A DNA stretch of 64,000 nucleotides from Spirochaetota bacterium (GTDB lineage Bacteria; Spirochaetota; UBA4802; UBA5550): contig JAGNKX010000001.1 in the NCBI GenBank assembly GCA_017999915.1, forward strand, positions 691,440-755,439. Reading direction: 5' to 3'. The position numbers and the translations under genes were made by a program. The notes beneath the pieces are model-generated. The model searched no databases. It was given only the letters and a program-made list of their open reading frames with translations, and had not been told where the DNA came from. The stretch's first letter is position 1, and every line of letters starts with the position of its first letter. Shown here piece by piece: positions 2 to 54,440 of the stretch.

Positions 2-3000
2 TACGCTGATAATAACGGCATAGCGGTGCTGCGGCTCCATGCCGGCAACTATCCCTATGACAGGGAGATCACCTGCGAGGCCACGGTGGTGGACCGCTCC
101 AATGTCAGCATCAGCTCCAGCAACAAGGTGCGGGTGGGTCGCGGGGAATACTACATCAAGATCGAGCCTTCCCAGCATTTCTTCTCCAGCGGCGAGAAGA
201 AGCCGGTCATTATCAGGACCCTCACCCATACCGGCAGGCCCCACGGCGCCAAGGTCAAGGTGGAGCTCTTCCGCTACATCTGGAAGCCGTGGGAGAGGGT
301 TTATGTCCATGATGCGAAACCACTTTTCTCTGAACAGGTTTCAACTGACAGCCAGGGCATTGCCACGGTGAACCTCCCGAAGGAGTTCAGCTTCTACGGC
401 GAATTCGACCTTGTGGTCAACGGTGTTGACCGGAAGGATAATGTCATAACCGCGTCCCGGGTCATATGGATCTACAGCCTTGAAGGGGCCAGGGTGGCGT
501 CGCGGTTCAAAAACCTGGAGCTGTCCGTCAACGCCACGGAGCTGGCCAAACCGGGAGAGATCACCTGCCTCATAAAGAGCTGCTTCACCGATGCCTATGT
601 GTGCGTCACCCTTGAGGGAAGGGATGTATATGAGTCGAAGGTGATCAAGATGACCGGCAACATCATGCCGGTGCAGTTCACCATAAAAACGGAATACGCG
701 CCGAACCTTTTTGTCACGGCTACGATGCAGAGAAAGAGGGCCCTGTACACCTCCTCGGCGGGGATTTCACTGCCGGTCCATGATACGGCCCTCGCTATCT
801 CCATCGAGCCTGACAAGCAGAAATACTTGCCTGGAGAGAAGGCTTCTGTGCTACTAAAGGCTGTGGATGGCAATGGCAAGCCGGCAAGGGCCGACCTCTC
901 CCTGGCTGCGGTGGACGAGGCGATATTCCAGGTCAGGTATGACCACACGCCCCTCATGAGGGACTACTTCTATACCAAAATATCCAACTGGGTCCTCACC
1001 AGCTATTCCTATCCCATAACCATGCTGGCCGGCGCAGCAAAGGACGGCAAGGTAAAGGTGCGGGAAAAGTTCGAGGACACGGCATTCTGGTCAGCGAAGA
1101 TCAGGACCGGGGAGGATGGCACTGCCCGGGTGAATTTTACCTTACCGGACAACCTGACGACCTGGCGCCTCACGGTCCGTGGCCACGACCAAGCCGGCAG
1201 GATGGGCGAGAAGAAGACCACCTTCCTGGTCACCCAGGATCTGATAGCGCGCATTGGAAAGCCGCGATTTATGGTGGAGGGGGACACCCTGAGCCTCATC
1301 GGCATCGTCAATAGCAATACTGAGCGGGGCCTAAAAAAGGTCGATACTATATTCAAGGCCGATGACAGGGTCCTTGAGGCGGACGAAGCAGTTACTATCA
1401 GTCTCCCGGCCTTCGGGTCCGCCAGAACCTATTATCCATACAAGGTGCCGAAAGACAGGAAAGAGGTAACGCTCCAGTACTCCGCCCGGTCGATCGGGGA
1501 CGCCAGGGACGCGCTGAAATTGACCGTCCCGGTGGAGCGGCGCGGCACGCCCTTCAAGCTCTACGGCATCGGCGACATGGCCGTTAATAGAACGGTCACG
1601 GTAACGCCTCTTGCCGAGACCGATGACTTCAGCTTCGTGCCTGAATCGGTGACCGTGTCCCTCAGCCCGTCCCCCATCATACAGATGCTCAGGGCGACGA
1701 AATACCTGAGCGAGTATCCCTACGGGTGCATCGAGCAGACCCTGAACAGCTTCATCCCGAACCTGGCGCTGAACCGGATGCTCAAGCAGAAGGGATACGG
1801 CCGGTTCATTAACGAAAAGGCGAAGAAAAAGCTCGATGACAAGGTGAGCGCCGGCATCGACCGGATCCAGCGGTACCAGAATGATGACGGCACCTGGGGA
1901 TGGTGGTCCGGGAGCCGCGGCAACGCCTTTGTTACCGGCTATGTGCTCTACTCCCTGCGGCTTGCCCAGGAGGCGGGATTCACCGTCGATAAACCGGTCG
2001 TCACCAGGGGGCTCACGGCGGTGCAGCGCTATTTTTCCAATCCGAAGCTGGAGGAGTGGGACGCCGTTGCGTACCTGATGTATATCAACGCCCTCTGGGG
2101 CAGATGGGACCATGAAATTTTCAAGAAGATCATCAAGGTCAAGGACCCGGGCACATACCGGACCGCATGCCTGGTGAAGGCCCTGGCACTGGCGCGGGCC
2201 CATCCAAAATTGACCGATGACATGAGGAGCGAAATAAACGCCATGGCGCCGCGCCTGGTTGATCTCCTCCTGCAATCGGCCAGGAAGGACGGCTGCGGCA
2301 TCTACTGGGAGAGCCGGGGCAATGACCGCTGGAGCTGGCCCGGAGGCGACACCGAGATCACCGCCCATGTCCTCTCAGCCCTGATCGGCGCCGGGGACCG
2401 TTCGACGGTGCCGGCGCAGATCGTCCGCTCCCTGTGCAGCCGCTCACGGGGGGATGCGTGGAATTCCACCAAGGAAACAGCAACGGTCATGATTGCCCTG
2501 TGCGGATACCTTGAGGCCATGGGAGGCCCTGCCGTGACCAGGGGCGCCGTGAGGTTTTCCCTGGACGGCAAAAAAATAGCTGACATTTCCTACGATCTTG
2601 AGGATCCGAAGGTGATGGAAAATCTGACCCGCAAGATCCAGTTGGAAGGAGGAAATGCCCGAAACTCCTTCACTGTGACCGCCGAAGGGGAAGCGGGATC
2701 GGATGTGAGCTTTGACGTAGTCATAGGCGGCACCCTGTATTTCAAGGACAAGGGTGCCCTGTCCCTGATACGGTCCGAGGAGCGGGGCATCAGGTCCCTT
2801 TCAAACGGCATCTCCATCACCAGGACCTTCGCGTCCATTACGAGGGTGCGCGATTCGCGCAACAATGAATACATGGTGCCCCAGAGCCTGGCGGGCAAGA
2901 AGGTCATCCAGATCGGGGACGAACTCCTGGTGAAGGTGAAATTCCAGGCCCAGGACGACTTTCAATACCTGGTGCTGGAGGACTATCTTCCCTCGGGTTT

Positions 3001-3244
3001 CGAGGTGACGAAGAACAACGCCTATGATGAGTACACGCCCTTTGTCCATATCGAACGGTGGGACAACAGGATGGTTTATTTCTTTACGGATTTGAAAAAG
3101 AATGAGATCTACGAAGTGGCGTATATCGTCAGGGCCGAGCTGCCAGGAAATTTCATGGTGAAGCCGTCCCGGATGGAATGCATGTACGAGCCGTCCATCC
3201 AGGGATGGTCGGCACCGGTTGTGGTTGATGTGGAGAAGAAATAG
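2..3244 (+). CDS. Alpha-2-macroglobulin family protein, C-terminal about 1072 aa. The reading frame is open to the window edge and the N-terminus lies upstream of the window.
   Basis: Long ORF open from position 2. Canonical thioester motif GCIEQ (YPYGCIEQTLNSF). Size and domain order are consistent with bacterial A2M (YfhM-like). Confidence 0.85.
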   Translation, partial: YADNNGIAVLRLHAGNYPYDREITCEATVVDRSNVSISSSNKVRVGRGEYYIKIEPSQHFFSSGEKKPVIIRTLTHTGRPHGAKVKVELFRYIWKPWERVYVHDAKPLFSEQVSTDSQGIATVNLPKEFSFYGEFDLVVNGVDRKDNVITASRVIWIYSLEGARVASRFKNLELSVNATELAKPGEITCLIKSCFTDAYVCVTLEGRDVYESKVIKMTGNIMPVQFTIKTEYAPNLFVTATMQRKRALYTSSAGISLPVHDTALAISIEPDKQKYLPGEKASVLLKAVDGNGKPARADLSLAAVDEAIFQVRYDHTPLMRDYFYTKISNWVLTSYSYPITMLAGAAKDGKVKVREKFEDTAFWSAKIRTGEDGTARVNFTLPDNLTTWRLTVRGHDQAGRMGEKKTTFLVTQDLIARIGKPRFMVEGDTLSLIGIVNSNTERGLKKVDTIFKADDRVLEADEAVTISLPAFGSARTYYPYKVPKDRKEVTLQYSARSIGDARDALKLTVPVERRGTPFKLYGIGDMAVNRTVTVTPLAETDDFSFVPESVTVSLSPSPIIQMLRATKYLSEYPYGCIEQTLNSFIPNLALNRMLKQKGYGRFINEKAKKKLDDKVSAGIDRIQRYQNDDGTWGWWSGSRGNAFVTGYVLYSLRLAQEAGFTVDKPVVTRGLTAVQRYFSNPKLEEWDAVAYLMYINALWGRWDHEIFKKIIKVKDPGTYRTACLVKALALARAHPKLTDDMRSEINAMAPRLVDLLLQSARKDGCGIYWESRGNDRWSWPGGDTEITAHVLSALIGAGDRSTVPAQIVRSLCSRSRGDAWNSTKETATVMIALCGYLEAMGGPAVTRGAVRFSLDGKKIADISYDLEDPKVMENLTRKIQLEGGNARNSFTVTAEGEAGSDVSFDVVIGGTLYFKDKGALSLIRSEERGIRSLSNGISITRTFASITRVRDSRNNEYMVPQSLAGKKVIQIGDELLVKVKFQAQDDFQYLVLEDYLPSGFEVTKNNAYDEYTPFVHIERWDNRMVYFFTDLKKNEIYEVAYIVRAELPGNFMVKPSRMECMYEPSIQGWSAPVVVDVEKK

Positions 3245-3255
3245 GGAGACACCAT

Positions 3256-3278
3256 GTCCCCGCCACTGAGGCGGGGAC
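3256..3278. other. Stable 9-bp stem-loop (GTCCCCGCC-actga-GGCGGGGAC) immediately after the A2M stop codon, with no U-tract.
   Basis: Perfect inverted repeat read directly from the sequence. It is followed by an A-rich stretch, not a T-rich one. Confidence 0.4.
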
Positions 3279-3300
3279 ATGAAAAAAATATGGAGTACCG

Positions 3301-3516
3301 ATGAAACCAAAAACTATCGCCATTATTGTTGGGACCATTTTGCTGACTATTCTGATATTCCAGAATACCCATTCAGTCGTGCTGAATATCTTCTTCTGGG
3401 AGCCGGATTTTCCCCTGATCGTTTTGATCGTCATCGTCCTGGGAATAGGTTTCGGACTCGGCTTTTTCGCGAAAAATATCAGCGCCGTGGCGCAGAAGAA
3501 AGGCGAAGATTATTAA
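3301..3516 (+). CDS. Small inner-membrane protein, LapA/YciS-like (DUF1049).
   Basis: 71 aa with two predicted TM helices. The N-terminal pattern KxIAIIVGxILLxILIFQN resembles the LapA family. Confidence 0.5.
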   Translation: MKPKTIAIIVGTILLTILIFQNTHSVVLNIFFWEPDFPLIVLIVIVLGIGFGLGFFAKNISAVAQKKGEDY

Positions 3517-3565
3517 TTAATGTCCGATCCGGTGAGCCCCGGTTAAGCCGAGAACAGATATCCCA

Positions 3566-5632
3566 ATGAACAAGTGCCCGGCCATATTCCTTTTGCTGTT
3601 TATCATGTTCCCGGTCTATCCGGCAGGAGCGGAAACTGATAATGATAAGCCTGTGACCATACAGATACTATCCAAGCAGGTCAGGCTGTTGAAAAGCGGC
3701 GCCATTAAAAGAATCTCCATTTCGGTAACGCATGGCGCCACGGTAAGGGATGAAAACCATAGGGTGATAGATGGGAAAACCATAAGTTGTTCCGTCACTG
3801 CCGGAATGGTTGGCTTGTTCATAGATGACAGGCCCCTGGCGGGATCCGGAAAACTGGATATCGCACCCGCTCCTGAAAAAGACGACATCGTGATCCATAT
3901 CGACGGAGAGGCGAGAAGGTATCCTCTCCCCCTGTCGGTCCGTTTTGGCGATAACAGCCTGATATTCACTGTACAGGAGAATCTAAACCGGTACGTCGTT
4001 GATTCGTCCCTGGCAGAATACAGCGGCGATTATTGGAAAGAAAGGGAAGGTATCCTCGCCCTGGCCCAGGTGATACGGGCCCGATATCATTTCTCCAAAA
4101 AAAATCCCCGCCACGGCAACGCGGATTTCTGCGACCTCACCCACTGCCAGGTGTACAGGGGCAGGATGAACAGCGCCATTTCTTTCCATGACGACTGGGT
4201 CATCGATCATCAGAAGCTGCGGCACAACCTCTTCTTTCACTCCCGGTGCGGAGGGAGGACCTTCGACCCCGGCGTTTTCAGGGGGAAAGCGATTTCCGCC
4301 GGCAATAACAGCCCTGGCGTAAGGGACTGGCTCTACCGCAAGGGAACCCGGCTTTGTTCCGCCAAGGATTCCCGCTGGGAGCGCACCATAGGCAATGATG
4401 AATTGGCCGGGATACTTTTTCCCGGGAAAGTGAATGATGGCAACGCATCACTGTCGCTTCGATACGACAGGGACATCATGGTGGTTGAGGTCATCACGCC
4501 ATCGGGAAAGACATCTTTCCCGGTTGAGACGTTCAGGCTTAAAATAAACAGGGTCAAGGGATGGAACTTTATCCGCAGTAACAGCTTTACCGTATCAGAG
4601 AAAACGACTGATAACGAGAGGCTTTTCCTTTTCAGGGGAGAGGGACTCGGTCATGGAACTGGCTTATGCCAGCATGGGGCCATGGCCCTTTCCCGGCTCG
4701 GATATAACAGGTACGAAATACTGGAACACTATTTTCCCGATCTTCAGTTTCAAAGCCCGGAAACAGAGGGGGAGTTGTCACCTTATTGCTCGTACTGTCT
4801 TTTTGATGTTTCCACGGGAAAGGTTTTAAAGTCAACTCAGGGCGAGGCCTTTTTGTCGAGAACCGTTCCGCCGGGATCGCTATTTAAGGTCATCGTCGCG
4901 CTGTATCTTGCCGCCGAGCGGCCCGATATATTTTCTGATTACGCCTATCCGTGCACAGGAAGGAATGTGAATGATCCGAACCTTCCCGACCGCTGCTGGA
5001 GGCCCAAAGGCCACGGGACGGTACGGCTCAAGGAGGCCCTGCCCAACTCATGTAACCTCTATTTCAGCTCACTCTATAAAAACATATCTCAAAAAAAATT
5101 CAGGGCATTTTATCAGAATTTCTGCGGGTCCCTGGGTATCAGGCAGCCCCTGCCGGAGACCGCAAACGACAGGCAATGGGCGGAGCTCCTGGCAGGTCTT
5201 GATTTCAGGATGTCATTTACCATTGGCGATTTGATCAAGCTGGCGCGCTACTGTTATTGCGGCAACGGTGAAGTGAGAGATCAATCAGTTCCAGGAATTC
5301 CTGTCCCCTATCAGGAAAGATTGAAGCTATTCCAGGGATTGCGGGATACCTTTGCCCATGGCACGGCTTCCGAACAGAAAAAACGCTCGGGCCCTTCCTG
5401 TAATTATATTTCTCTTGAAAACCCAAGTGAAAAAAAATCCAACATGCCTTTAACTGGTCTCTGGGGAAAAACAGCCACTGTCCTGGATGGCACCAATACG
5501 CCGTTGAGCTATGGCCTATTCATGGGCGGGAACGGCGCCACCGGCGTTATTGTTGTGTTGAGAAAAGGCACGGGCAACATGGCTTCCCGATGGGCGCGGA
5601 AAATCCTCGGCCAGGAAAAAAGAAACGACTGA
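3566..5632 (+). CDS. Secreted fusion protein: SpoIID/LytB (lytic transglycosylase-like) domain plus a C-terminal PBP/beta-lactamase-like transpeptidase domain.
   Basis: Signal peptide present. SpoIID signature residues RHGNADFCDLTHCQVYRG and GEGLGHGTGLCQHGAMALSRLGY. Downstream are SxxK (SLFK), SxN (SCN) and KTG-like (KGTG) motifs. Confidence 0.7.
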   Translation: MNKCPAIFLLLFIMFPVYPAGAETDNDKPVTIQILSKQVRLLKSGAIKRISISVTHGATVRDENHRVIDGKTISCSVTAGMVGLFIDDRPLAGSGKLDIAPAPEKDDIVIHIDGEARRYPLPLSVRFGDNSLIFTVQENLNRYVVDSSLAEYSGDYWKEREGILALAQVIRARYHFSKKNPRHGNADFCDLTHCQVYRGRMNSAISFHDDWVIDHQKLRHNLFFHSRCGGRTFDPGVFRGKAISAGNNSPGVRDWLYRKGTRLCSAKDSRWERTIGNDELAGILFPGKVNDGNASLSLRYDRDIMVVEVITPSGKTSFPVETFRLKINRVKGWNFIRSNSFTVSEKTTDNERLFLFRGEGLGHGTGLCQHGAMALSRLGYNRYEILEHYFPDLQFQSPETEGELSPYCSYCLFDVSTGKVLKSTQGEAFLSRTVPPGSLFKVIVALYLAAERPDIFSDYAYPCTGRNVNDPNLPDRCWRPKGHGTVRLKEALPNSCNLYFSSLYKNISQKKFRAFYQNFCGSLGIRQPLPETANDRQWAELLAGLDFRMSFTIGDLIKLARYCYCGNGEVRDQSVPGIPVPYQERLKLFQGLRDTFAHGTASEQKKRSGPSCNYISLENPSEKKSNMPLTGLWGKTATVLDGTNTPLSYGLFMGGNGATGVIVVLRKGTGNMASRWARKILGQEKRND

Positions 5633-5655: not shown

Positions 5656-6240
5656 TCAGGCGGATAACAATTTCAGCGCGTCCTTGATTATGGATTCAAC
5701 TGGACTGTCGGGCTTGTTTTTTAGCAGCTCTTCAACGATCTTGGATGATTTGGCGTCGTCAAAACCGAGTGTGACCAGGGCTTCGATGGCGTCATTTTTA
5801 TGAGTTTGCGGGGCATCAATCTGCCCTGAAAGGGTTGTCAGCTTCTTTAATTTCCGCTTCAGCTCAAAAATGAGCTTTTCGGCTTTGGCGTTTCCTATGC
5901 CGGGAATCTTCGTCAGAAGGGCCGTGTTTTCCGATTGGACTGCGTCAACGAGGCGGTTTATGGTTATTCCTGACAGGATGGATATGGCCATGGCAGGCCC
6001 TATGCCGGTTATGTTCAGCAGAATTGAAAAACACTCCTTCTCGTTTTCCGTAAAAAAGCCAAATAGCTTGAGTTGGTCTTCCTTGTGATGTGTGTGGACG
6101 TATAGAACAACATCGGTATGGGACTGAATTTTTTCATAGGTTGATAGGGGAATGGTTAATCCATAGCCCACGCCCTGGACGTCCAGGATAACTTCTGTCG
6201 GCTTAAGCTCGTCTATGGTTCCGCGTATTTTTGATATCAT
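5656..6240 (-). CDS. ruvA: Holliday junction ATP-dependent DNA helicase subunit RuvA.
   Basis: N-terminus MISKIRGTIDELKPTEVILDVQGVGYGLTIP and overall 194-aa architecture are typical of RuvA. Confidence 0.9.
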   Translation of the reverse strand: MISKIRGTIDELKPTEVILDVQGVGYGLTIPLSTYEKIQSHTDVVLYVHTHHKEDQLKLFGFFTENEKECFSILLNITGIGPAMAISILSGITINRLVDAVQSENTALLTKIPGIGNAKAEKLIFELKRKLKKLTTLSGQIDAPQTHKNDAIEALVTLGFDDAKSSKIVEELLKNKPDSPVESIIKDALKLLSA

Positions 6241-6386
6241 ATATGAATGTAAACCGTTTATGATAGATTTTCAGTTTTTTAAGAATTAACTAATATAGTT
6301 CTCTTATACAATAAAAAAAGAAATTTTTAGATTTTTTTTGATTTTTTCACAATTTCAGTGGCCAAATAAGTTAATATTTATTATAT

Positions 6387-6421
6387 TTAACTAAACAGTT
6401 AGTTAAACTAAATAGTTAGTT
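6387..6421. promoter_or_regulatory. Two adjacent inverted repeats AACTAA-N4-TTAGTT (centres 17 bp apart) 10-45 nt upstream of the tetR start: candidate TetR operators. A third partial copy lies near 6286-6300.
   Basis: Palindromes read directly: TTAACTAAacagTTAGTTAA and AACTAAatagTTAGTT, in the AT-rich divergent promoter region between ruvA and tetR. Confidence 0.4.
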
Positions 6422-6433
6422 AACAAGGTATAA

Positions 6434-7042
6434 ATGGAAGATACGACTGAAAAAAAGATAAAAAATGCCGCCCTGCGCGAGTTTGCCCAACATGGTCTGG
6501 AAGGAGCCAGGGTGGACCGCATTGCCCAGAAAGCGAAAATAAACAAGGCCATGATCTATTATCATTTTAAAAGCAAGGAAGATCTGTATGAATCGATCTT
6601 GATAGAATTTTACAGTAAAATCTTTCCGCGGGTAGCAGGCAATATTTCAAAAGACAAGGGTGTTGAAGAACAGCTGGAATCCATCGTTACGTTTTTCATT
6701 GATTTCATCAAGGAAATGGATCAGGATTATATCAGGGTTATGCTCAGGGAGCTCTCCAGCGGCGGCAAGTATTTCAAAAAACTTATGCTCCCCAATGTCA
6801 TCATCCCCATGATGGGGCTAGTTCAGGAGCTTTTTACCGCAGGCATCAAGCAGGGAACATTCAAAAATATCGTCCCCCATTTAACTTTTATCCAGATGCT
6901 CGGATCAATCGTTTTTACCAACGCCATCCGCATAACCCTCTCTGATACTGATTTCGGGAAAATGATATTCAATGATGATTTCTTTGAAGAGTATAAGAAG
7001 AACATGCTGACAGTGGTAAAGACCGGGATCATGGCATCGTAA
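6434..7042 (+). CDS. TetR/AcrR family transcriptional regulator (YbiH-like).
   Basis: N-terminal HTH with the MIYYHFKSKEDLY motif. Position is immediately upstream of the efflux genes. Confidence 0.85.
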   Translation: MEDTTEKKIKNAALREFAQHGLEGARVDRIAQKAKINKAMIYYHFKSKEDLYESILIEFYSKIFPRVAGNISKDKGVEEQLESIVTFFIDFIKEMDQDYIRVMLRELSSGGKYFKKLMLPNVIIPMMGLVQELFTAGIKQGTFKNIVPHLTFIQMLGSIVFTNAIRITLSDTDFGKMIFNDDFFEEYKKNMLTVVKTGIMAS

Positions 7043-7057
7043 GGAGGAATCAGGAAT

Positions 7058-8479
7058 ATGAAATATAAAGCCTTATCAATAATCGCATTGTTCGTTGGAT
7101 TGGCACTATCAGATCCTATTCCCATCCGGGGTGAAGGGGCTCTTAAAAAGATCACCCTCGACGATGCCGTGTCCATCGCGAAAAAGAACAACCATGATTA
7201 TAAAATCGCCCTTCAGCGGCACAAGGCTGAATCCGAGAAGGTCAACCAGGCGTGGGGCATGCTCCTGCCGGTCATTGAATCGGAAGCCTCATTGACAAGG
7301 CAGGGGGCCCAGTCCGGATTCATGAGCATGGCCGAAGGCCAGTATGATATCAAGATAGTGCAGGTCAAGTTCGGCATCAATCCTGGCATGTTTTATCATT
7401 CCCTGCAGATGTCACGAAAGGCCTACGCCGTTTCCACGGAGGAAATGAGGAAGGTGAAAAGCGATATAGAATTCAACGTGATCGAAAGTTATTTCAATCT
7501 CATCCTTGCCGAAGAGATGATATCGATACGAAAAGACACGATCAAGCTTCTTCAAGAGAATCTTAAAGATGTGACCAGCCTCTTCAAGACCGGCAGCGTG
7601 CCCCGGTACGAGCTCCTCCAGGCACAGGTACAGCTGAAAAGCCAGGAGCCTTTGCTTCTGGAAGCCGAGAACCGGTACCGCCTGGCCCTGGAGATGTTCA
7701 ATTACCAGCTGGGTCTCGATGAACGGGTATATGCCGCTGACCGGAGCATCATTGAAAAAGACAACTACCGCGTGGCGGAGAAGGATATCGATTCATTCAT
7801 CCAGCGCGTTGGCGCCATTGCCCTGAAAAACAGGCCGGAGATCATCCAGCTCAAGATGAAGAAGGAGATAGCCGGTCATGCCAAGAACATCACCGATTCC
7901 TATTACCTCTGGCCGACCTTCATGGCCGGGGGATACTACGGGTATAACATGCCGCTTACCACGGTCGGCGAAAAGCTTCTCCCCACTTCCAATGGAGGCG
8001 CTACGTACATGGACCTGTCGCAGATCGCGGGGGAGCGGAAATGGCAGCCCAACTGGATGATACGCGTCGCGGCCACGTACCGGTGGAGCGCCCTGCTTCC
8101 CGTTGATTCCACCCGCGCCCAGGGCCGGGAAGCCAGGGCGCGGGGCCTCGAAGCCGAAGAGGAGATCGCCAAGGTGAAGCGCCTGGTGACCATTTCCATA
8201 AAATCATCCTATTCCAATATACTGACTGCAAACCAGACCATATCGTCCCACCGGGAGAATGTCGACAAGGCCAAAGAGGGGCTTCGCATAGCCCGCGAAA
8301 GCTACCGTGCCGGCGTCATTAAAAACTCCGAACTCTTCGGAGCGCAGGTTGCCCTTACGCAGGCTCAGGCCGGGTATATAAACGCCGTCAACAGCTACTA
8401 CCAGTCCCTGGCAAAACTGCGAAAGGATATCGGCACTGACGATGACAGCATAATTTTCGGAGGAGAAGAACATGAATAA
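7058..8479 (+). CDS. TolC-family outer membrane efflux protein.
   Basis: Signal peptide, 473 aa, coiled-coil/beta-barrel repeat organisation, and operon context with HlyD and ABC genes. Confidence 0.8.
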   Translation: MKYKALSIIALFVGLALSDPIPIRGEGALKKITLDDAVSIAKKNNHDYKIALQRHKAESEKVNQAWGMLLPVIESEASLTRQGAQSGFMSMAEGQYDIKIVQVKFGINPGMFYHSLQMSRKAYAVSTEEMRKVKSDIEFNVIESYFNLILAEEMISIRKDTIKLLQENLKDVTSLFKTGSVPRYELLQAQVQLKSQEPLLLEAENRYRLALEMFNYQLGLDERVYAADRSIIEKDNYRVAEKDIDSFIQRVGAIALKNRPEIIQLKMKKEIAGHAKNITDSYYLWPTFMAGGYYGYNMPLTTVGEKLLPTSNGGATYMDLSQIAGERKWQPNWMIRVAATYRWSALLPVDSTRAQGREARARGLEAEEEIAKVKRLVTISIKSSYSNILTANQTISSHRENVDKAKEGLRIARESYRAGVIKNSELFGAQVALTQAQAGYINAVNSYYQSLAKLRKDIGTDDDSIIFGGEEHE

Positions 8480-9275
8480 AAAGAAGATCATTCCCATAGC
8501 CGTTGTGGCGGCGGTAGTAACGCTATCCATCCTGTATTTCGAGGTGTTCCGCCATATTGGGGAGGACGGAAAACGCATTGAAGGGTCCGGAACCATCGAG
8601 GTCACGGAGGTTGACATCAGCTCGAAGCTTGCCGGGAGGATCATCAGCATAGCCCGCGACGAGGGAGAGAGCGTCAAACACGGCGAGGTCCTGGTGAGGA
8701 TCGCCTACGACGAGCTGGACGCCCAGCGCCTTTCAGTGATAGCGAACCTGAACAACGCCAAAAAAAACATGGACCGCGTCAGGGACCTTTACAGGAGCGG
8801 GTCTGTATCGAAAAAGGATTTTGACAACATGGAGACCATGTACCGCATGGCGAAGGCCGCCAATGAGCAGATCAACGCGGCCATAAGCAACGCGGTCATC
8901 GCATCGCCCGTCGACGGCGTGGTGCTGGAAAAAAACCTGGAGATAGGAGAGATCGCCTTCCCGGGAACGCCGGTGCTCACCGTGGCGGACATAAAGGATA
9001 CCTGGATCAAGATATATGTCAATGAAAAGCAGCTGGGCCGCGTCAAGCTGGGTCAGAAGGCCGAGATCACCGTGGATTCATTCCCTGATAAGAAATTCAT
9101 CGGCAAGGTCATATCCATATCGAACAAGGCCGAATTTACGCCCAAGACGATCCAGACCAAGGATGAGCGGGTCAAACTCATGTTTGCGGTGAAGATCGCC
9201 GTTCCCAATCCGGACCAGAAGCTGAAGCCGGGAATGCCCGCCGACGCCATAATACTTGCGGGGGACGTTAAGTGA
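8472..9275 (+). CDS. HlyD-family periplasmic adaptor / membrane fusion protein (YbhG-like).
   Basis: N-terminal TM helix, coiled-coil and lipoyl/beta-barrel segments. The ORF overlaps both neighbouring genes. Confidence 0.85.
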   Translation: MNKKKIIPIAVVAAVVTLSILYFEVFRHIGEDGKRIEGSGTIEVTEVDISSKLAGRIISIARDEGESVKHGEVLVRIAYDELDAQRLSVIANLNNAKKNMDRVRDLYRSGSVSKKDFDNMETMYRMAKAANEQINAAISNAVIASPVDGVVLEKNLEIGEIAFPGTPVLTVADIKDTWIKIYVNEKQLGRVKLGQKAEITVDSFPDKKFIGKVISISNKAEFTPKTIQTKDERVKLMFAVKIAVPNPDQKLKPGMPADAIILAGDVK

Positions 9276-10189
9276 TAACGGTTGAGGGCCTGACCAAGAA
9301 TTTCGGCGATATACGGGCGGTTGACTCCCTGTCCTTTACCGTCAACAAGGGGGAGATCTTCTGCATCGTGGGCCCCGACGGCTCGGGCAAGAGCACCCTC
9401 CTCAGGATGATATCGTCGATCCTGATACCCAACGGGGGGAGCATCACTATCAACGGCATCGATGTGAAGGAAAATCCAATTAAAATCAAGGAGAACCTGG
9501 CGTACATGCCCCAGCGTTTCGGCCTCTACGAGGACCTGACCGTTGAGGAAAACATCTTCTTCTTCGGCAGGCTCTATCTCCTGTCGCACCGCGAGATCAG
9601 GAAGAAGCTCGACGCCCTGTACGGCTTCAGCAGGCTGGGGCCTTTTAAGGACCGCCTGGCGGGGAAGCTGTCAGGGGGGATGAAGCAGAAGCTGGGCCTC
9701 GTCTGCAGCCTGGTGCATACGCCGGAGGTGATTCTCCTGGACGAGCCGACCAACGGCGTGGACCCGGTGTCTCGCCGTGAGTTCTGGGACATCCTGTACG
9801 AGCTCCTTGGCCAGGGAGTCACCATCGTCGTTACCACCGCTTATCTGGATGAGGCGGAACGAAGCAACAGGGTGGCCCTGATGTACCGAGGAAAATTCAT
9901 ACGCCTGGGTAAGCCGAAGTCGATACGGGACGAATTGCAGCAGAGGATGCTGCATATTATCGTCGATGACCCGCACGGGGCGGAGACCCTGCTGAAAGTT
10001 GATGGCGCCATGAAGATCGTCCGCACCGGAAATTCCATCAGGATTTTTACCGGGACAATGCAGAAGACAAGAAAGCAGGCGGAGCGGCTGTTGAAAGGGA
10101 AGGGCATCGGCATCCTCAAAAGTGAAGAGGTGATGCCGCGCCTTGAAGACAGCTTCATCGAGATTATAACAAGGGAGGAAGACCGGTGA
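9272..10189 (+). CDS. ABC transporter ATP-binding protein.
   Basis: Walker A GPDGSGKST, ABC signature LSGGMKQKL, Walker B ILLDEPT. GTG start overlapping the upstream stop (GTGA). Confidence 0.9.
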   Translation: MITVEGLTKNFGDIRAVDSLSFTVNKGEIFCIVGPDGSGKSTLLRMISSILIPNGGSITINGIDVKENPIKIKENLAYMPQRFGLYEDLTVEENIFFFGRLYLLSHREIRKKLDALYGFSRLGPFKDRLAGKLSGGMKQKLGLVCSLVHTPEVILLDEPTNGVDPVSRREFWDILYELLGQGVTIVVTTAYLDEAERSNRVALMYRGKFIRLGKPKSIRDELQQRMLHIIVDDPHGAETLLKVDGAMKIVRTGNSIRIFTGTMQKTRKQAERLLKGKGIGILKSEEVMPRLEDSFIEIITREEDR

Positions 10190-11337
10190 AAGCCTTTGGT
10201 TCCCTCATACGAATGATCGCGATTGCGGACAAGGAATGGATCCAGATACGGCGTGACGGCCGGAGCTTTTTCCTGGCGCTGTTCATTCCGACCCTGCTGG
10301 TGCTGCTGTTCGGCTATGCCCTGGTATTTGACGTGAAGCATGTGAAGGTCGCCGTGTATGACCAGGACCGCAGTTATGCTTCCCGACAGTACCTTGAGCG
10401 GTTCAAGCATACAGAATATATCTCGATTGAGCGGTATGTCGATAATTACAAGGATATCGACGGGCTCATAAATTCAGGCGCAATCGCGATGGCCCTGGTG
10501 ATCCCGCCCTCTTTTGAGCGAAAATTCAATTCCGGGAAGTACGCCGATATACAGGTACTGGTGGACGGGTCGGATTCCATGTCAGCCCTGATCGCCACCG
10601 GCTACGTGAAGGCCATAAGCTATGAATTTAACAGGGACTACCTGGAGAAGGCTTTGACCAAGAAAGGGCTGACATCGTTGCGGCAGCCTGTAGAGATTAA
10701 AAACAGGATATGGTATAATTCGGAGCTGAAGAGCCGCAATTTCATCATACCCGGCAACCTGGGCCTTATCCTGGCCATCATATCGGCCCTGATCACCTCC
10801 CTCACCATTTCCCGGGAATGGGAGCGGGGGACCATGGAGACACTCATAACAACGCCGGTGCGCGGACACGAAGTGGTGCTGGGGAAGCTCATCCCCTATA
10901 TTTTCATAGGCCTTTTCGATGTGGTCTTCGCCCTGGTCGTCGGCTATTTCGTTTTCAACGTGCCCTTCAGGGGAAGCTTCCTTGAGCTGATGCTCATATC
11001 CATACTGTTCCTGGTGGGGACCAGCGGCCTGGGCATACTCATTTCCTCGATAACGCGGGTGCAGGTGCTCTCGGTGCAGGTTGCCATTGTCCTTACCTAT
11101 CTGCCGTCCTTCATGCTCTCTGATTTTATATTTCCGATCAAGAACATGCCGTTGATCATCCAGGCCATCACGTACATCATTCCGGCAAAATACATGATCG
11201 TCGTGCTGAAGGGGATCATCCTGCGCGGCGTCGGGTATCCCGTGCTGATAATGCAGATAGTGTTTCTTTCAATATTCTGCATCCTGGTGCTTGCCCTGTG
11301 CATTAAAAAGTTCAGGGTCAGCCTCCCGGACAAGTGA
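10186..11337 (+). CDS. ABC-2 type transporter permease (YbhS/YbhR-like).
   Basis: 383 aa. Large periplasmic loop after TM1 and C-terminal 5-TM ABC-2 domain. GTG start overlaps the upstream stop. Confidence 0.85.
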   Translation: MKAFGSLIRMIAIADKEWIQIRRDGRSFFLALFIPTLLVLLFGYALVFDVKHVKVAVYDQDRSYASRQYLERFKHTEYISIERYVDNYKDIDGLINSGAIAMALVIPPSFERKFNSGKYADIQVLVDGSDSMSALIATGYVKAISYEFNRDYLEKALTKKGLTSLRQPVEIKNRIWYNSELKSRNFIIPGNLGLILAIISALITSLTISREWERGTMETLITTPVRGHEVVLGKLIPYIFIGLFDVVFALVVGYFVFNVPFRGSFLELMLISILFLVGTSGLGILISSITRVQVLSVQVAIVLTYLPSFMLSDFIFPIKNMPLIIQAITYIIPAKYMIVVLKGIILRGVGYPVLIMQIVFLSIFCILVLALCIKKFRVSLPDK

Positions 11338-11355
11338 CAAAGAGGCATAGGCGAC

Positions 11356-12546
11356 ATGAAAGCATTCATCAGGCCAAAAGTACTTGTAAGCATGATAAAA
11401 AAGGAATTCGCCCAGGTGCTGCGCGATATCCGGATGCGGGGCGTTGTATTCGGGCCGCCGATAATCATGATCATCGTTTTCGGTTATGCCATCAACCTTG
11501 ACGTTAATACCGTGAACCTGGCTGTCGTCGATGAGGATAAAACATCGATGAGCCGGGGATTGATTGAAAAGTTCACCGGCTCTGGGTATTTTAAGCTGCA
11601 TTCATATCTGTACTCGGACGATGAATTGATGCCCCTGATGGACCGGGGAACGGTGGAAGCGTTTATCCATTTGAGGCGTGACCTGTCAAAAAACCTTAAA
11701 ACCGGGAAGGTCTCGGAAATTCAGGTGATCATCGACGGGACTGATTCCAATAGGGGCGCGATCATCACCGCCTATGTCAACGAGATAATGCAGGGTTTTT
11801 TCATGGATGAGTACCTCGGAAGGGTCAAGGCGCAGATACTGTACCGCCTGTCGGGCCTTCCGGGCACGCAAACTGGCGAGTCTGCCGGAATGGTAATGCC
11901 CCGGGGGGTCCGCATCCTTGACAGGGCCTATTTCAATCCTACCCTCCTCAGCAAGAATTATTTTCTGCCCGGGGTCATAGGTTTCATCGTTTCCCTGATA
12001 ACGGTCATGCTGACGTCGATGTCGATCGTCAAGGAGCGGGAGTCGGGGACCATGGAGCAGATCGTCGTGTCCCCCATCAAGCCGATGGAATTCATCATGG
12101 GGAAGACGATACCTTTCGCCATCATCGGCTTTATCGACATGCTGATCGTAACGATAATAACGATTTTCTGGTTCGGCGTTCCCTTCAACGGCAGTATCGC
12201 CTTCCTGTATTTTGCGGCATTTTTCTATATCCTCTGCTCCCTCGCGGTGGGTATATTCATTTCCACGATATCAAAGACACAGCAGCAGGCGATGATGTCA
12301 TTCTTTCTGTATTTCATACCGGCGATTCTCTTTTCCGGCTTTGCCTTTCCCATCTACGCGATGCCGGAAACGATACAGTTCATCACCTACCTCAATCCGC
12401 TGATGTATTTCATGGTCATTATCCGGGGGGTGTTCCTGAAGGGTGTGGGCATAACGGTCCTGTGGAAGGAAGTGCTGATCCTCATGGTCATCGGAATTGT
12501 ACTGCTGAACCTGAGCGCCCGCAGGCTGAGCAGGAGGATGGAATAA
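11356..12546 (+). CDS. ABC-2 type transporter permease, paralog of the preceding gene.
   Basis: 396 aa with the same topology as the preceding permease. Confidence 0.85.
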   Translation: MKAFIRPKVLVSMIKKEFAQVLRDIRMRGVVFGPPIIMIIVFGYAINLDVNTVNLAVVDEDKTSMSRGLIEKFTGSGYFKLHSYLYSDDELMPLMDRGTVEAFIHLRRDLSKNLKTGKVSEIQVIIDGTDSNRGAIITAYVNEIMQGFFMDEYLGRVKAQILYRLSGLPGTQTGESAGMVMPRGVRILDRAYFNPTLLSKNYFLPGVIGFIVSLITVMLTSMSIVKERESGTMEQIVVSPIKPMEFIMGKTIPFAIIGFIDMLIVTIITIFWFGVPFNGSIAFLYFAAFFYILCSLAVGIFISTISKTQQQAMMSFFLYFIPAILFSGFAFPIYAMPETIQFITYLNPLMYFMVIIRGVFLKGVGITVLWKEVLILMVIGIVLLNLSARRLSRRME

Positions 12547-13472
12547 TGGAAAAAGTCGTTGAGATCAGGAACCTTACCAAGACATTCGGCGATTTTACCG
12601 CGGTCAATAATATCAGCCTCTCGGTGGAGAAGGGGGAAATATTCGGTTTCCTGGGCCCCAACGGCGCGGGGAAGACGACCACCATCAAGATGCTCTGCGG
12701 CATCCTGATGCCGACCTCCGGTGAGGGCCGGGTATCGGGGTTCGATATCATCGCCGAGCAGGAGAAGATCAAGACCATCATCGGGTACATGTCCCAGCGA
12801 TTCAGCCTGTATGAAGATCTCACGGTCGTGGAGAACCTGGAATTTTACGGCAGCATATACGGCCTCGAGGGGAGGAAACTGAAAGAGTCCATCGGCCGGG
12901 TGGTCGACATGGCGGGCATCGGCGACCGGAAAAATGACCTGGTGAAAAACCTGCCGGGCGGCATGAAGCAGCGCCTGGCCCTGGGCGGCGCCATACTCCA
13001 TGATCCGCCGATCCTCTTCCTCGACGAGCCCACGTCAGGAGTGGATCCCCTCATGCGGCGGAACTTCTGGGACATCATATACCGGTTTTCCGAGGAGGGG
13101 CGCACCATCTTTGTCACCACCCACTACATGGACGAGGCGGAGCACTGCAACAGGATTGCCCTGGTCATCGCGGGACAGATCATCGCCCTTGATTCGCCGG
13201 AAGCCCTGAAAAAGAATTTTGACAATGCCGTATATTCCATCGTAACGGATAACTTTCTCGAGGTATTCGAGAAAATCAGGTACCTTGACTTTATCATTGA
13301 AGCGGCCATATTCGGCACCGACATCCATATCCTGTGCGGCAAGGATGTGCCGGCGAAGAAAAAAATAGCGGCTTTTTTCAAAGAGCAGGACATCTCCTCC
13401 TATGCGATCCATCGGATAACACCAAGCCTTGAGGACGTGTTCGTGAGCAATGCCAGGAAATACGCCCTCTGA
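12546..13472 (+). CDS. ABC transporter ATP-binding protein, second ATPase of the system.
   Basis: Walker A GPNGAGKTT, signature LPGGMKQRL, Walker B LFLDEPT. I place the start at ATG 12546 (MEKVVEIRNLTK), overlapping the upstream TAA (TAATGG). The ORF-track start at 12462 would overlap the permease by 85 nt. Confidence 0.85.
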   Translation: MEKVVEIRNLTKTFGDFTAVNNISLSVEKGEIFGFLGPNGAGKTTTIKMLCGILMPTSGEGRVSGFDIIAEQEKIKTIIGYMSQRFSLYEDLTVVENLEFYGSIYGLEGRKLKESIGRVVDMAGIGDRKNDLVKNLPGGMKQRLALGGAILHDPPILFLDEPTSGVDPLMRRNFWDIIYRFSEEGRTIFVTTHYMDEAEHCNRIALVIAGQIIALDSPEALKKNFDNAVYSIVTDNFLEVFEKIRYLDFIIEAAIFGTDIHILCGKDVPAKKKIAAFFKEQDISSYAIHRITPSLEDVFVSNARKYAL

Positions 13473-52100: not shown

Positions 52101-54440
52101 TCACCTGGACTTTTTCACTTCACCATCAAAAATCTTTGATTTTTCTTTGATGAGCAGATCCCCTTTTTTCTTCCGCACCAGGTCGAAGATGCTTGTCATT
52201 TCGTCATGATCGGAATTGCACTTTTCACGCGGCTCGGTTCCGGCGATAAAAAACTCAGATTTAACGGGACAGCCTTCAACGGGGATTTTACCGGTCTTTC
52301 CGCAGATCGCGCGAACGGTGACACCGTCAGGCTGCGCCTTGAATCGTCCCGGCTTCCTGAAGGTATAGACCTGGCGCATGAAATTGCCCCATATCGGCGC
52401 CGATACCACGGCCGCGCTCTGGCCGCTGCCGAGGGAAAATTTCTGGGAATCACAGCCCATCCATACCGCCGCGACAAGGTCCGGCGTGAACCCGACGAAC
52501 CAAGCATCTTTGAATTTTGTGGTGGTGCCTGTTTTCCCCCCGGCGGGGAGATTGAACCCGGCGGTTCCCCTGACGCCGCCGGTGGCCGTGCCGGAATCCA
52601 CGACACTCCGGAGAAGGCTTGTCATGATAAAGGCCGTCTGCTCCGAAATGAGGCGCTTTCCGGCGCCCTCTGCTTTCGAGCCGCCGTACAATTTCTTTCC
52701 CTTTTTATCCGTAATGGACCGGATCGCGCGGGGTGTTACCTCTCGGCCGCCGTTGGCATAGACCGCGAATCCCCTGGCCATTTCCAGGGGCGAAACTTCA
52801 GATGTGCCGAGTGAAATGGTCGGATCAACGGCAAAACGGCTTCGTGGTATTCCCATGAGGCGGGAAGCATAGTCTGCCACCAGCTTCGGCTCGACTTCGT
52901 CGGCAACCAGTACCGAGATGATGTTAAGGGAAGCGGCAAGGGCGTTCCGGACGAGGACCCTGCCTTTGTATGTTTTTTCATAGTTGGAGGGCTTCCAGGT
53001 CGTTCGCGTGCCCTTGAACAGGACCGGCACGTCGTAATAGGCCGTGGCGGCGGTGATGCGCTTTGATTCTATGCCCGCGCCGTAGACAAAGGCCTTGAAG
53101 GCGGACCCGGGCTGGCGGGCCGACTGCACGGCGCGGTTGAGCTGGTTGGCGGCGTTGAAATCGCTTCCTCCGACCATGGCGGTAATATCGCCGGTGGACG
53201 GGTCAAGGGACACCAGGGCCCCCTCGACCCGCGAAGAGCGCTTGAGTTCTTCCTGCTGATTGAGGTATTTCATCAGGCTGCGTTCCAATCCCTCGACGCC
53301 GAAGAGCTGGGAGCAGAGCAGCAGGTCATCAATGGACCCGATACGGAAGGTGTCAAGAAATCGCATCCTTGTTTCCGCCTCTTTCCTTGATATCTTTTTG
53401 TCTTCTATCAGCTTCCGCGTCATGAGGCGGTCCGGTGAATCGTAGCTGGAGGCGTTGCGGGAAAGGGCGACCTGATTCTGCTCTTCGATGCCCTCGACCA
53501 GCGCATCTTCAGCCGCCTTCTGGTGGCGGAGGTCAAGGGTCGTATGTACCTCAAGACCACCCCGGTAAACAAGTTTTTCCCCGAACGTATCAATGAGATA
53601 CTGCCGAATGAACTCGGTGAAGTAGGGAGCACGGTCAAAGCTGCTGCCGCGCACTCCCAGGGTGGGAAATTTTGTTTTTATCGCATCAAGATAGGATTCC
53701 CAGAAAGCGTTGAACTGGCGGGTAGCGTCGCCTTTTTCAATAGTGCCGGCGTCGATCATGGTATAAAGGACCTGCCTGCTCCGCCCAAAGGCGGCGCGGG
53801 GGTTTTTGAGGGGCGAAAAATGATTGGGGGCCGACGGTATCGACGCCAGCAGCGCCGCTTCAGGGACCGTTATGCCTTTCATCTCCTTGTCAAAAAAGAA
53901 GCGGGCAGCGGCCTGGACCCCATATACGCCATGGCCGAAATATATCTGGCTCAGATACATCTCAAGAATCCGGTCCTTGGTAAATTTTTTCTCGAACTCC
54001 CGGGCTATGAATATCTCTATGATCTTTCTATGTAACGTCTTCTCGCCCCTTGTGTAAAGCTGCTTGACCAGCTGCTGGGTTATGGTGGAGCCGCCCTGCC
54101 TGATATCGCCGCTCAGGACGTCGACGATCAGGGCCCGGACGATGCCGGGAATATCAAAACCGGAATGGAGATAAAAATTCCGGTCCTCCGCGGCGCAAAA
54201 GGCCTGTTTTACAACGAGGGGGATTGTGCCACCGGTGACGATGGTGCGGTTTTCCTCGAAGAGCTCCGATATCAGCTCGCCGTTGCAGTCGTAGATTTTC
54301 GTCGAAACGCTGGGATCGTAGGTGAGCTCCCCGGAAAGTATGGAGTAGCTGGAAGTATAGGCTGAGAGTATGTAGGCGAAGGGAAGGATGATTATCCCAA
54401 TGAGCAGTAATTTTGCCGGCAATGCCCTGGTCAGTTTCAT
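52101..54440 (-). CDS. Bifunctional class A penicillin-binding protein (GT51 transglycosylase plus transpeptidase). Its length and C-terminal extension are PBP1C-like.
   Basis: GT51 motifs EDRNFYLHSGFD and GGSTITQQLVKQ. Transpeptidase motifs SAFK, SLN and KTGT. N-terminal membrane anchor. 779 aa. Confidence 0.9.
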   Translation of the reverse strand: MKLTRALPAKLLLIGIIILPFAYILSAYTSSYSILSGELTYDPSVSTKIYDCNGELISELFEENRTIVTGGTIPLVVKQAFCAAEDRNFYLHSGFDIPGIVRALIVDVLSGDIRQGGSTITQQLVKQLYTRGEKTLHRKIIEIFIAREFEKKFTKDRILEMYLSQIYFGHGVYGVQAAARFFFDKEMKGITVPEAALLASIPSAPNHFSPLKNPRAAFGRSRQVLYTMIDAGTIEKGDATRQFNAFWESYLDAIKTKFPTLGVRGSSFDRAPYFTEFIRQYLIDTFGEKLVYRGGLEVHTTLDLRHQKAAEDALVEGIEEQNQVALSRNASSYDSPDRLMTRKLIEDKKISRKEAETRMRFLDTFRIGSIDDLLLCSQLFGVEGLERSLMKYLNQQEELKRSSRVEGALVSLDPSTGDITAMVGGSDFNAANQLNRAVQSARQPGSAFKAFVYGAGIESKRITAATAYYDVPVLFKGTRTTWKPSNYEKTYKGRVLVRNALAASLNIISVLVADEVEPKLVADYASRLMGIPRSRFAVDPTISLGTSEVSPLEMARGFAVYANGGREVTPRAIRSITDKKGKKLYGGSKAEGAGKRLISEQTAFIMTSLLRSVVDSGTATGGVRGTAGFNLPAGGKTGTTTKFKDAWFVGFTPDLVAAVWMGCDSQKFSLGSGQSAAVVSAPIWGNFMRQVYTFRKPGRFKAQPDGVTVRAICGKTGKIPVEGCPVKSEFFIAGTEPREKCNSDHDEMTSIFDLVRKKKGDLLIKEKSKIFDGEVKKSR

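Follow-up and report, generated by a model that had tools for sequence, protein, structure and literature searches.

A secreted SpoIID-transpeptidase fusion encoded beside a thioester macroglobulin in Spirochaetota, a predicted domain-permuted counterpart of E. coli YfaQ

The 64,000-nucleotide stretch of DNA analyzed here (the window; contig JAGNKX010000001.1, positions 691,440 to 755,439 of the forward strand) comes from a Spirochaetota bacterium, and its sequence matches a Spirochaetes metagenome-assembled genome (MAG). It begins with three consecutive + strand genes, arranged head to tail. They encode an alpha-2-macroglobulin (A2M) with a thioester motif (2..3244), a small LapA-like membrane protein (3301..3516) and a secreted protein of 688 residues (3566..5632, stop codon included) in which a SpoIID-like domain is fused to a penicillin-binding transpeptidase (TP) domain. 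An earlier note on this DNA regarded the fusion as a substitute for PbpC, the penicillin-binding protein (PBP) gene product found beside other thioester A2Ms. We find instead that the TP domain is class-B-like, nearest to PBP2, PBP3 and SpoVD, and that the pair of domains is homologous to YfaQ, a DUF2300 protein of the Mag/Yfa operon. Sequence comparison thus points to a domain-permuted, YfaQ-type A2M partner whose catalytic motifs are intact except for the glycine of the KTG box, and not to a PbpC derivative.

The fusion is encoded by a single ORF. Pfam Transpeptidase (PF00905) matches residues 412–554 with an E value of 1.5e-9, and the TP-fold domain as a whole spans residues 408–688 (4787..5629). 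The SpoIID/LytB-like lytic-transglycosylase domain occupies residues 140–396 (3983..4753). Within it, NCBIfam SpoIID_LytB (TIGR02669) aligns to residues 167–396 at 64.8 bits, under its cut-off of 83.3, and Pfam SpoIID (PF08486) gives 17.9 bits, under its 23-bit cut-off; relatives encoded by separate SpoIID genes, described below, pass the Pfam model at 60–82 bits. An AlphaFold2 model of the fusion (pLDDT 87.5, pTM 0.89) contains both a SpoIID and a PBP fold. When this model was compared with the PDB by Foldseek, the top matches were TP domains of class B PBPs, namely C. difficile PBP3 (7rd0), SpoVD (7rcz) and Gram-negative PBP2/PBP3, and the N-terminal half matched C. difficile SpoIID (5i1t, E 7.6e-9). 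The sequence matches of the SpoIID domain in the PDB are likewise SpoIID entries (5i1t, 5txu, 4rwr). The predicted fold is therefore SpoIID plus a class-B-like PBP transpeptidase, and the PBP assignment of the C-terminal half made in the earlier note is upheld by both the domain search and the structural matches. We also considered a beta-lactamase or a BlaR-type sensor; this identity is not favored, as the second box is of the SxN and not the SxV type and structural comparison places class B PBPs first.

Ahead of the two catalytic domains, a Sec-type signal peptide (residues 1–22, ...VYPAGA/ETD; 3566..3631) can be read from the sequence, and hydrophobic N-termini are kept in the homologs. It is followed by a beta-strand domain (residues 29–139, 3650..3982), which was delimited by DSSP on the AlphaFold2 model and has no Pfam match.

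To describe conservation we use 88 homologs of at least 600 residues with the same architecture. In the SpoIID domain, the candidate catalytic glutamate E151 (4016..4018) is present in 88/88 fusions and is invariant also in the separate SpoIID genes. It is the probable equivalent of the catalytic glutamate of C. difficile SpoIID, judged from the alignment and the residue numbering. The zinc-site motif H183...C189-D-L-T-H193-C194-Q (4112..4150) is also well kept, with H183 in 78, C189 in 86, H193 in 79 (cysteine in a further 7) and C194 in 86 of the 88 sequences, and it aligns with the ...C.D..HCQ motif of C. difficile SpoIID. The C-terminal GxGHGxG...Q.GA motif of SpoIID is conserved in the fusions as well. 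The window protein therefore shares with C. difficile SpoIID (5i1t) the fold, the glutamate, the Cys/His zinc-site motif and the C-terminal motif. It differs from the SpoIID of endospore formers in that it scores under the family cut-offs, is fused to a PBP domain and belongs to a didermic, non-sporulating lineage; SpoIIP and SpoIIM partners were not seen in the window cluster.

In the TP domain, the SxxK nucleophile box is S438-L-F-K441 (4877..4888), and S438 and K441 are found in 88/88 fusions, as are all three residues of the SxN box, S495-C496-N497. The KTG box is K635-T-A-T638 (5468..5479). Here K635, T636 and T638 are invariant and the third position is serine in 49, alanine in 32 and glycine in 7 of the 88 sequences. 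Among the motifs listed when the protein was first read, FCDLTHCQVYRG, GLGHGTGLCQHGA, SLFK and SCN are present and conserved. The choice of K-G-T-G (residues 667–670, 5564..5575) as the KTG box does not hold: the true box is GKTAT at residues 634–638, and in K-G-T-G the lysine is kept in 57/88 and the threonine position is asparagine in 59/88.

C463, C477, H483 and the SxN cysteine C496 (4952..5056, including S495 and N497) are conserved in 87/88, 88/88, 88/88 and 88/88 fusions, respectively. These residues correspond to the ligand pattern [D/C],[D/C],H,C-of-SxN defined for C. difficile PBP2, PBP3 and SpoVD (Sacco et al. 2022, PMC9334274), a zinc-binding class reported mainly from anaerobic Firmicutes. 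The TP domain thus carries the Cys2-His-Cys(SxN) set of this class as a predicted metal site. The same set is also seen in most of the separate TP genes. The zinc-binding class B PBPs (C. difficile PBP3, SpoVD and PBP2) share this four-ligand pattern, including the cysteine in SxN, and are the best sequence and structure matches. In contrast to them, the window TP domain, whose metal site is predicted from sequence, has the KTG glycine replaced and is a bare unit of approximately 280 residues with neither pedestal domain nor membrane anchor, preceded by a cleavable signal peptide and the SpoIID domain.

Two contexts of bacterial A2Ms are distinguished in the literature: Type I, in which a thioester A2M is paired with pbpC, and Type II, in which an A2M without thioester is encoded in a six-gene mag operon (PMC5764988, PMC3735191). 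The A2M operon of E. coli has the order yfaA-yfaT-yfaS-yfaQ-yfaP; its A2M is of the type without thioester (PMC5764988), and yfaS is a pseudogene in E. coli K-12. YfaQ (b2226; locus L091, E. coli K-12 NC_000913.3, 2328148–2329797) is named by NCBI only 'tandem DUF2300 domain-containing protein'. The window fusion family aligns with YfaQ over the SxxK–SxN region (hhalign 88.8%, E 2.5e-6), where YfaQ reads GSLWK...SCG. A profile of TP-then-SpoIID fusions, which are introduced below, is colinear with YfaQ residues 55–363 (hhalign 96.1%, E 3.3e-9). The SpoIID part is recognized independently: Pfam SpoIID matches YfaQ residues 312–374 above its cut-off, and a SpoIID profile aligns with YfaQ at 84% (hhalign). 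No Pfam DUF2300 match was obtained for the window protein. In YfaQ, GSLWK, SCG and KTW stand for SxxK, SxN and KTG, and the SpoIID glutamate helix is kept and CDLTHCQ is lost. The active-site boxes thus decay along a series, from KTG/SCN in the separate genes through KT[S/A]/SCN in the fusions to KTW/SCG in YfaQ. By these profile comparisons YfaQ is a remote homolog and a degenerate member of the TP plus SpoIID set.

Comparing the two proteins directly shows that both are secreted, are encoded beside an A2M gene and combine a PBP-TP-like with a SpoIID-like part. Their domain orders are opposite: the TP part precedes the SpoIID part in YfaQ and follows it in the window fusion. The window family keeps every motif that YfaQ has lost or altered (SCG, KTW, loss of CDLTHCQ) except the KTG glycine. 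The operons differ as well: YfaA, YfaT and YfaP accompany YfaQ, whereas VanW, AMMECR1 and a CxEQ A2M take their place in the window cluster. P. aeruginosa MagE is a probable YfaQ equivalent, judged from gene position only.

The transpeptidase-like N-terminus and SpoIID-like C-terminus of YfaQ were described in a 2025 preprint that does not mention the macroglobulin (bioRxiv 10.1101/2025.02.11.637708). In the same work, deletion of yfaQ gave wider cells, and the mutant profile clusters with those of peptidoglycan and envelope mutants (bioRxiv 10.1101/2025.02.11.637708). The architecture was initially not recognized as described; its TP plus SpoIID make-up had already been reported for YfaQ in the preprint (bioRxiv 10.1101/2025.02.11.637708). 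A known family, DUF2300, does occur in A2M operons, but its domains are arranged the other way round and its motifs are degenerate. The window protein is new in combining the reversed order of domains with catalytic motifs that are intact, and in having a thioester A2M, VanW and AMMECR1 as companions; the YfaQ family itself was already known. In the literature searched, we found no link between the TP/SpoIID nature of YfaQ and A2M, and no paper linking SpoIID, VanW or AMMECR1 with A2M.

Is the fusion a genuine protein? Four assemblies, namely the NCBI MAG and three independent ones from Logan, contain an identical fusion protein. A frameshift or misassembly is rejected on these grounds, together with the 88 long homologs that share the architecture, and the two halves belong to one gene, as originally proposed. 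In total we found 92 fusion homologs at 34–77% identity, 88 of which have at least 600 residues. An exhaustive search of 1.84 billion cluster representatives gave 62 matches at E <= 1e-30, of which about 50 are fusions of full length, and also returned fusions of the TP-then-SpoIID type and hundreds of stand-alone SpoIID proteins of approximately 390 residues. All fusion carriers found are MAGs or metagenome assemblies, and none is a cultured isolate.

The A2M gene is cut by the window edge, and its start precedes the window. The part inside the window encodes the C-terminal 1080 residues, with Pfam matches to A2M_BRD, A2M, TED_complement and bMG10, and the thioester motif G-C-I-E-Q (CxEQ) lies at 1724..1738 on the + strand, which confirms the thioester A2M of the earlier note. 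In other assemblies of the same genome the full-length protein has 1791 residues, a lipoprotein-type N-terminus (...VSYISC) and extra N-terminal CarboxypepD_reg domains. These assemblies also show a VanW gene and then a secreted AMMECR1 gene preceding the A2M gene, just before the window. The window therefore begins with the 3' end of a conserved cluster: VanW, AMMECR1, A2M, (LapA-like), SpoIID-TP fusion. The protein encoded by the first gene is a secreted VanW protein with a GGGLCQ cysteine motif. According to a 2024 report on C. difficile Ldt4 and Ldt5 (PMC11348318), VanW-family proteins are L,D-transpeptidases. The cluster VanW resembles Ldt4/Ldt5 in being secreted and in its conserved catalytic cysteine motif; its gene is a separate one outside the window and is missing from several cluster arrangements. 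The AMMECR1-domain protein has a signal peptide and is seen just upstream of the window at 950–1582 of locus L001 and again at 11871–12683 of L065. The role of a secreted AMMECR1 is not obvious.

To assess gene linkage, a species-level genome scan yielded 76 loci, which were surveyed by tblastn. The fused gene is present in 49 of them, and 46 have sufficient upstream DNA to be assessed. In 40/46, a same-clade A2M gene is found directly upstream of the fusion and in the same orientation, so the fusion recurs beside A2M. AMMECR1 precedes the A2M gene in 36/36 assessable Spirochaete loci and VanW in 24/36, and CxEQ is present in 57/57 cluster-linked A2M ORFs that span the thioester region. In the six loci without an adjacent A2M, a search for alternative partners found only housekeeping genes (ThiF, MptE-like, HD-GYP-type, aminotransferase); one of the six has a same-clade A2M and AMMECR1 approximately 30 kb away on the same contig. 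In the reverse search, the A2M clade (at least 44% identity, about 1790 residues) is restricted to the same Spirochaete-labeled lineages, and the distributions of the A2M clade and the fusion family match. More distant A2Ms (P0281, P0283 and P0320) lie in unrelated contexts, indicating that not every A2M has a TP/SpoIID partner. The complete VanW-AMMECR1-A2M-fusion cluster was also observed in two Desulfobacterota-labeled genomes, L028 (JAHDKI01, 'Syntrophaceae') and L030 (OY821638, 'Smithellaceae', a 5.2-Mb chromosome), which suggests horizontal transfer of the entire module.

The small gene between A2M and the fusion encodes a 71-residue membrane protein with a LapA domain (Pfam LapA_dom, 39.3 bits against a cut-off of 28, E 5.9e-10), in agreement with its first annotation. 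Among the loci scanned by tblastn, it occurs at this position only in L004–L011, L026 and L037. This distribution is that of an accessory gene, retained only in closer relatives.

In more distant MAGs (WOR-3, Myxococcota-type, Sericytochromatia and others), the two domains are encoded by neighboring genes of their own, with TP preceding SpoIID. The TP proteins, of approximately 300–340 residues, have GKTGT and SCN and mostly the zinc set, with KTGT in 22/22; the SpoIID proteins, of approximately 390–500 residues, pass the Pfam model. A thioester A2M lies within 10 kb of the pair in 16/22 assessable distant loci. The arrangement varies widely. In WOR-3 and Kryptonia it is A2M-TP-SpoIID; in L062 and L065, A2M-VanW-membrane protein-TP-SpoIID-AMMECR1; in Sericytochromatia, membrane protein-TP-SpoIID...AMMECR1-A2M-VanW; and in the Myxococcota-type clusters, MagC-A2M-YfaP-NIF3-kinase-TP-SpoIID-HExxH protein. 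At least four different gene orders thus keep A2M, TP and SpoIID together, and a linkage that outlasts this much rearrangement is not due to chance. A TP-then-SpoIID fusion in locus L088 has no A2M within 7 kb upstream.

Using E. coli proteins as tblastn queries, we found homologs of YfaT/MagC preceding the A2M gene in the WOR-3 and Myxococcota-type clusters, and of YfaP in the latter (E 1e-10 to 1e-28). By this content these clusters are Mag/Yfa-type operons, yet they encode thioester A2Ms. Operons of this kind with CxEQ A2Ms were observed at L089/L090 (265–11964), L072 (1138–12692), L055 and L066. Their existence contradicts the simple scheme in which Type I combines a thioester with pbpC and Type II lacks the thioester and goes with mag. 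With E. coli and Myxococcota-type queries, tblastn detected no homolog of MagC/YfaT, YfaP (DUF2135) or YfaA (DUF2138) in the window or in any Spirochaete locus.

Several further proteins accompany these distant clusters. Between YfaP and the TP gene, the Myxococcota-type clusters encode a NIF3/DUF34 protein and a Ser/Thr kinase, which in L072 has a PEGA domain (L072, 7493–9835; L089, 6686–8972). Following SpoIID in the Myxococcota-type clusters is a conserved protein of 223–247 residues with an invariant HExxH...P.W..EGLA motif (L072, 12021–12692; L089, 11221–11964). YfaQ ends in a similar stretch, HEYLH...P.GLDE; homology between this C-terminal region and the 223–247-residue protein was rejected as not significant (hhalign 1.4%, E 0.036). 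In several other arrangements, at L065 (8757–9803), L062 (3358–4410) and L064/L067/L075 (about 8100–8800), the gene before TP encodes a multi-pass membrane protein of approximately 350 residues that Pfam does not recognize.

The remaining features of the window are peripheral to the cluster. The two intergenic gaps measure 56 and 49 nt, and a + strand terminator is absent from both; a promoter and terminator scan of the locus was uninformative, as the counts were no higher than in shuffled sequence. A 345-residue antisense ORF within the A2M gene (1331–2368, − strand) is most likely spurious. The region 5656–13472 downstream contains ruvA in convergent orientation, followed by a TetR regulator and the genes of an efflux cluster (OEP, HlyD, ABC-ATPase and ABC-2 permease); neither is connected with the A2M cluster. 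The separate class A PBP pointed out in the earlier note is indeed present 46 kb away, at 52101..54440 on the − strand, and no other class A PBP is encoded in the window: it has 779 residues and Transgly and Transpeptidase domains, is devoid of BiPBP_C, and looks like a general bifunctional PBP rather than PbpC.

How does this cluster compare with yfhM-pbpC? Both place a thioester A2M with a lipoprotein-type N-terminus (YfhM, also ECAM/Sa-A2M) beside the gene for a periplasmic enzyme with a PBP-TP domain. As noticed at the outset, no pbpC adjoins the window A2M: the neighboring gene encodes neither the GT51 glycosyltransferase (Transgly) nor BiPBP_C, and has a SpoIID domain of the glycan-cleaving type instead. 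The window TP domain is class-B-like, whereas that of PbpC is class A. The A2Ms themselves are only remotely similar (E 2.6e-23 over about 320 residues), and the window protein has the extra CarboxypepD_reg domains. The rationale of defense plus wall repair offered for A2M-PBP1c is applicable also to the window cluster (PMC5764988).

From the observed architecture, folds, residue conservation, gene linkage and homology to YfaQ, we infer an enzymatic activity for the fusion, its substrates, co-transcription of the cluster and functional coupling to A2M. The role that best fits the architecture, conservation and linkage, to which we assign a probability of roughly 0.6, is that of a peptidoglycan remodeling or repair arm coupled to protease trapping. 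The fusion would be exported to the periplasm, where the other parts of the cluster are likewise predicted to reside, acting on the wall or located at it. Upon a breach of the envelope, the membrane-anchored A2M would trap incoming proteases through its bait region and thioester, the SpoIID domain would cut damaged or denuded glycan strands, and the TP domain would re-form or trim D-Ala-D-Ala stem-peptide links. The VanW L,D-transpeptidase could add 3-3 cross-links. In this way the fusion would act as a remodeling and repair arm independent of a glycan polymerase.

Several observations weigh against this assignment. The SpoIID part scores under both the Pfam and the NCBIfam family cut-offs, six of 46 loci have no adjacent A2M and unrelated neighbors, and the KTG glycine is replaced by serine or alanine in 81/88 fusions. 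The TP domain lacks the pedestal that normally activates class B PBPs and may therefore be a hydrolase rather than a cross-linker. The decay of the boxes across the series could mean drift toward a binding or scaffolding role, and in the most derived forms the TP domain may serve to bind the A2M complex. The carriers with intact motifs are all uncultivated and their enzymatic role is predicted, and the A2M-PBP1c repair model has itself the status of an untested hypothesis (PMC5764988).

A hydrolytic TP domain leads to a different assignment, which we consider possible at perhaps one chance in four. As a DD-carboxypeptidase or endopeptidase, it would convert pentapeptides to the tetrapeptide donors that L,D-transpeptidases need, as described for these enzymes in PMC11348318 and PMC13344953, and VanW would use these donors as SpoIID opened the glycan, giving local 3-3 conversion under envelope stress. 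The bare domain of approximately 280 residues without pedestal or membrane anchor fits such an activity, the altered KT[S/A] box suggests non-standard substrate handling, and VanW co-occurs in 24/36 Spirochaete loci and in several other arrangements. The closest sequence and structure relatives, however, are cross-linking class B PBPs and not low-molecular-weight carboxypeptidases, and the WOR-3 and Myxococcota-type clusters, which have no VanW, still keep TP and SpoIID.

It is unlikely, in our estimate, that the pair serves A2M itself. In such a role it would be mostly non-catalytic, or would act locally, and would position, mature or tether A2M or A2M-protease complexes at the peptidoglycan. 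The stepwise decay of the catalytic boxes toward YfaQ and the very tight genetic linkage to A2M across phyla are consistent with such a service. So is the behavior of the Mag proteins: MagD forms complexes with MagA, MagB and MagF, and deletion of magE, which directly follows the A2M gene as yfaQ does in E. coli, alters the MagD band pattern (PMC5764988). MagE, on the other hand, formed no stable binary complex with MagD (PMC5764988), and its equivalence to YfaQ is one of gene position only. The catalytic residues of the two domains, moreover, show no variation in 88/88 fusions, which argues for enzymatic constraint. That the fusion is a housekeeping wall-remodeling enzyme whose adjacency to A2M is functionally meaningless we regard as highly improbable: the six loci that carry it among unrelated housekeeping genes and the L088 fusion without an A2M within 7 kb upstream favor this, but the linkage is kept through at least four gene orders, fused and split, in Spirochaetota, WOR-3, Myxococcota-type, Sericytochromatia, Kryptonia and other MAGs, and the distributions of the A2M clade and the fusion family match.

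A wider interpretation, which we put forward as a speculation with the odds clearly against it, is that a TP-fold protein (PBP1c, YfaQ, or TP plus SpoIID) is a common, ancestral companion of bacterial A2Ms. The split into Type I and Type II would then be an artifact of sampling Proteobacteria, thioester A2Ms in Mag-like operons would be the widespread state, and A2M function would be mechanistically tied to the chemistry of wall cross-links, beyond mere co-regulation. If so, TP or VanW might covalently tether A2M or trapped proteases to the peptidoglycan, or might confine repair to the very point at which a protease enters. Neither the presence of TP-fold partners in all three A2M contexts nor that of thioester A2Ms in Mag-like operons was found stated in the literature searched.

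Since 2004, bacterial macroglobulins have been thought of in terms of guard and repair, an idea resting mainly on the adjacency of A2M and pbpC, and the function of the Mag/Yfa accessory proteins has so far been obscure. The clusters described here link a second, independent set of wall enzymes (a glycan cutter, a DD-peptidase fold and often an L,D-transpeptidase) to thioester A2Ms across many phyla, with E. coli YfaQ as a decayed representative. Each of the three A2M contexts has a TP-fold partner, and the thioester A2Ms in Mag-like operons make the division into Type I and Type II less clear. For biochemists, the proteins whose motifs are intact offer canonical active sites to assay, and for geneticists the yfa operon of E. 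coli and the mag operon of P. aeruginosa are tractable systems for the coupling of wall remodeling and protease trapping.

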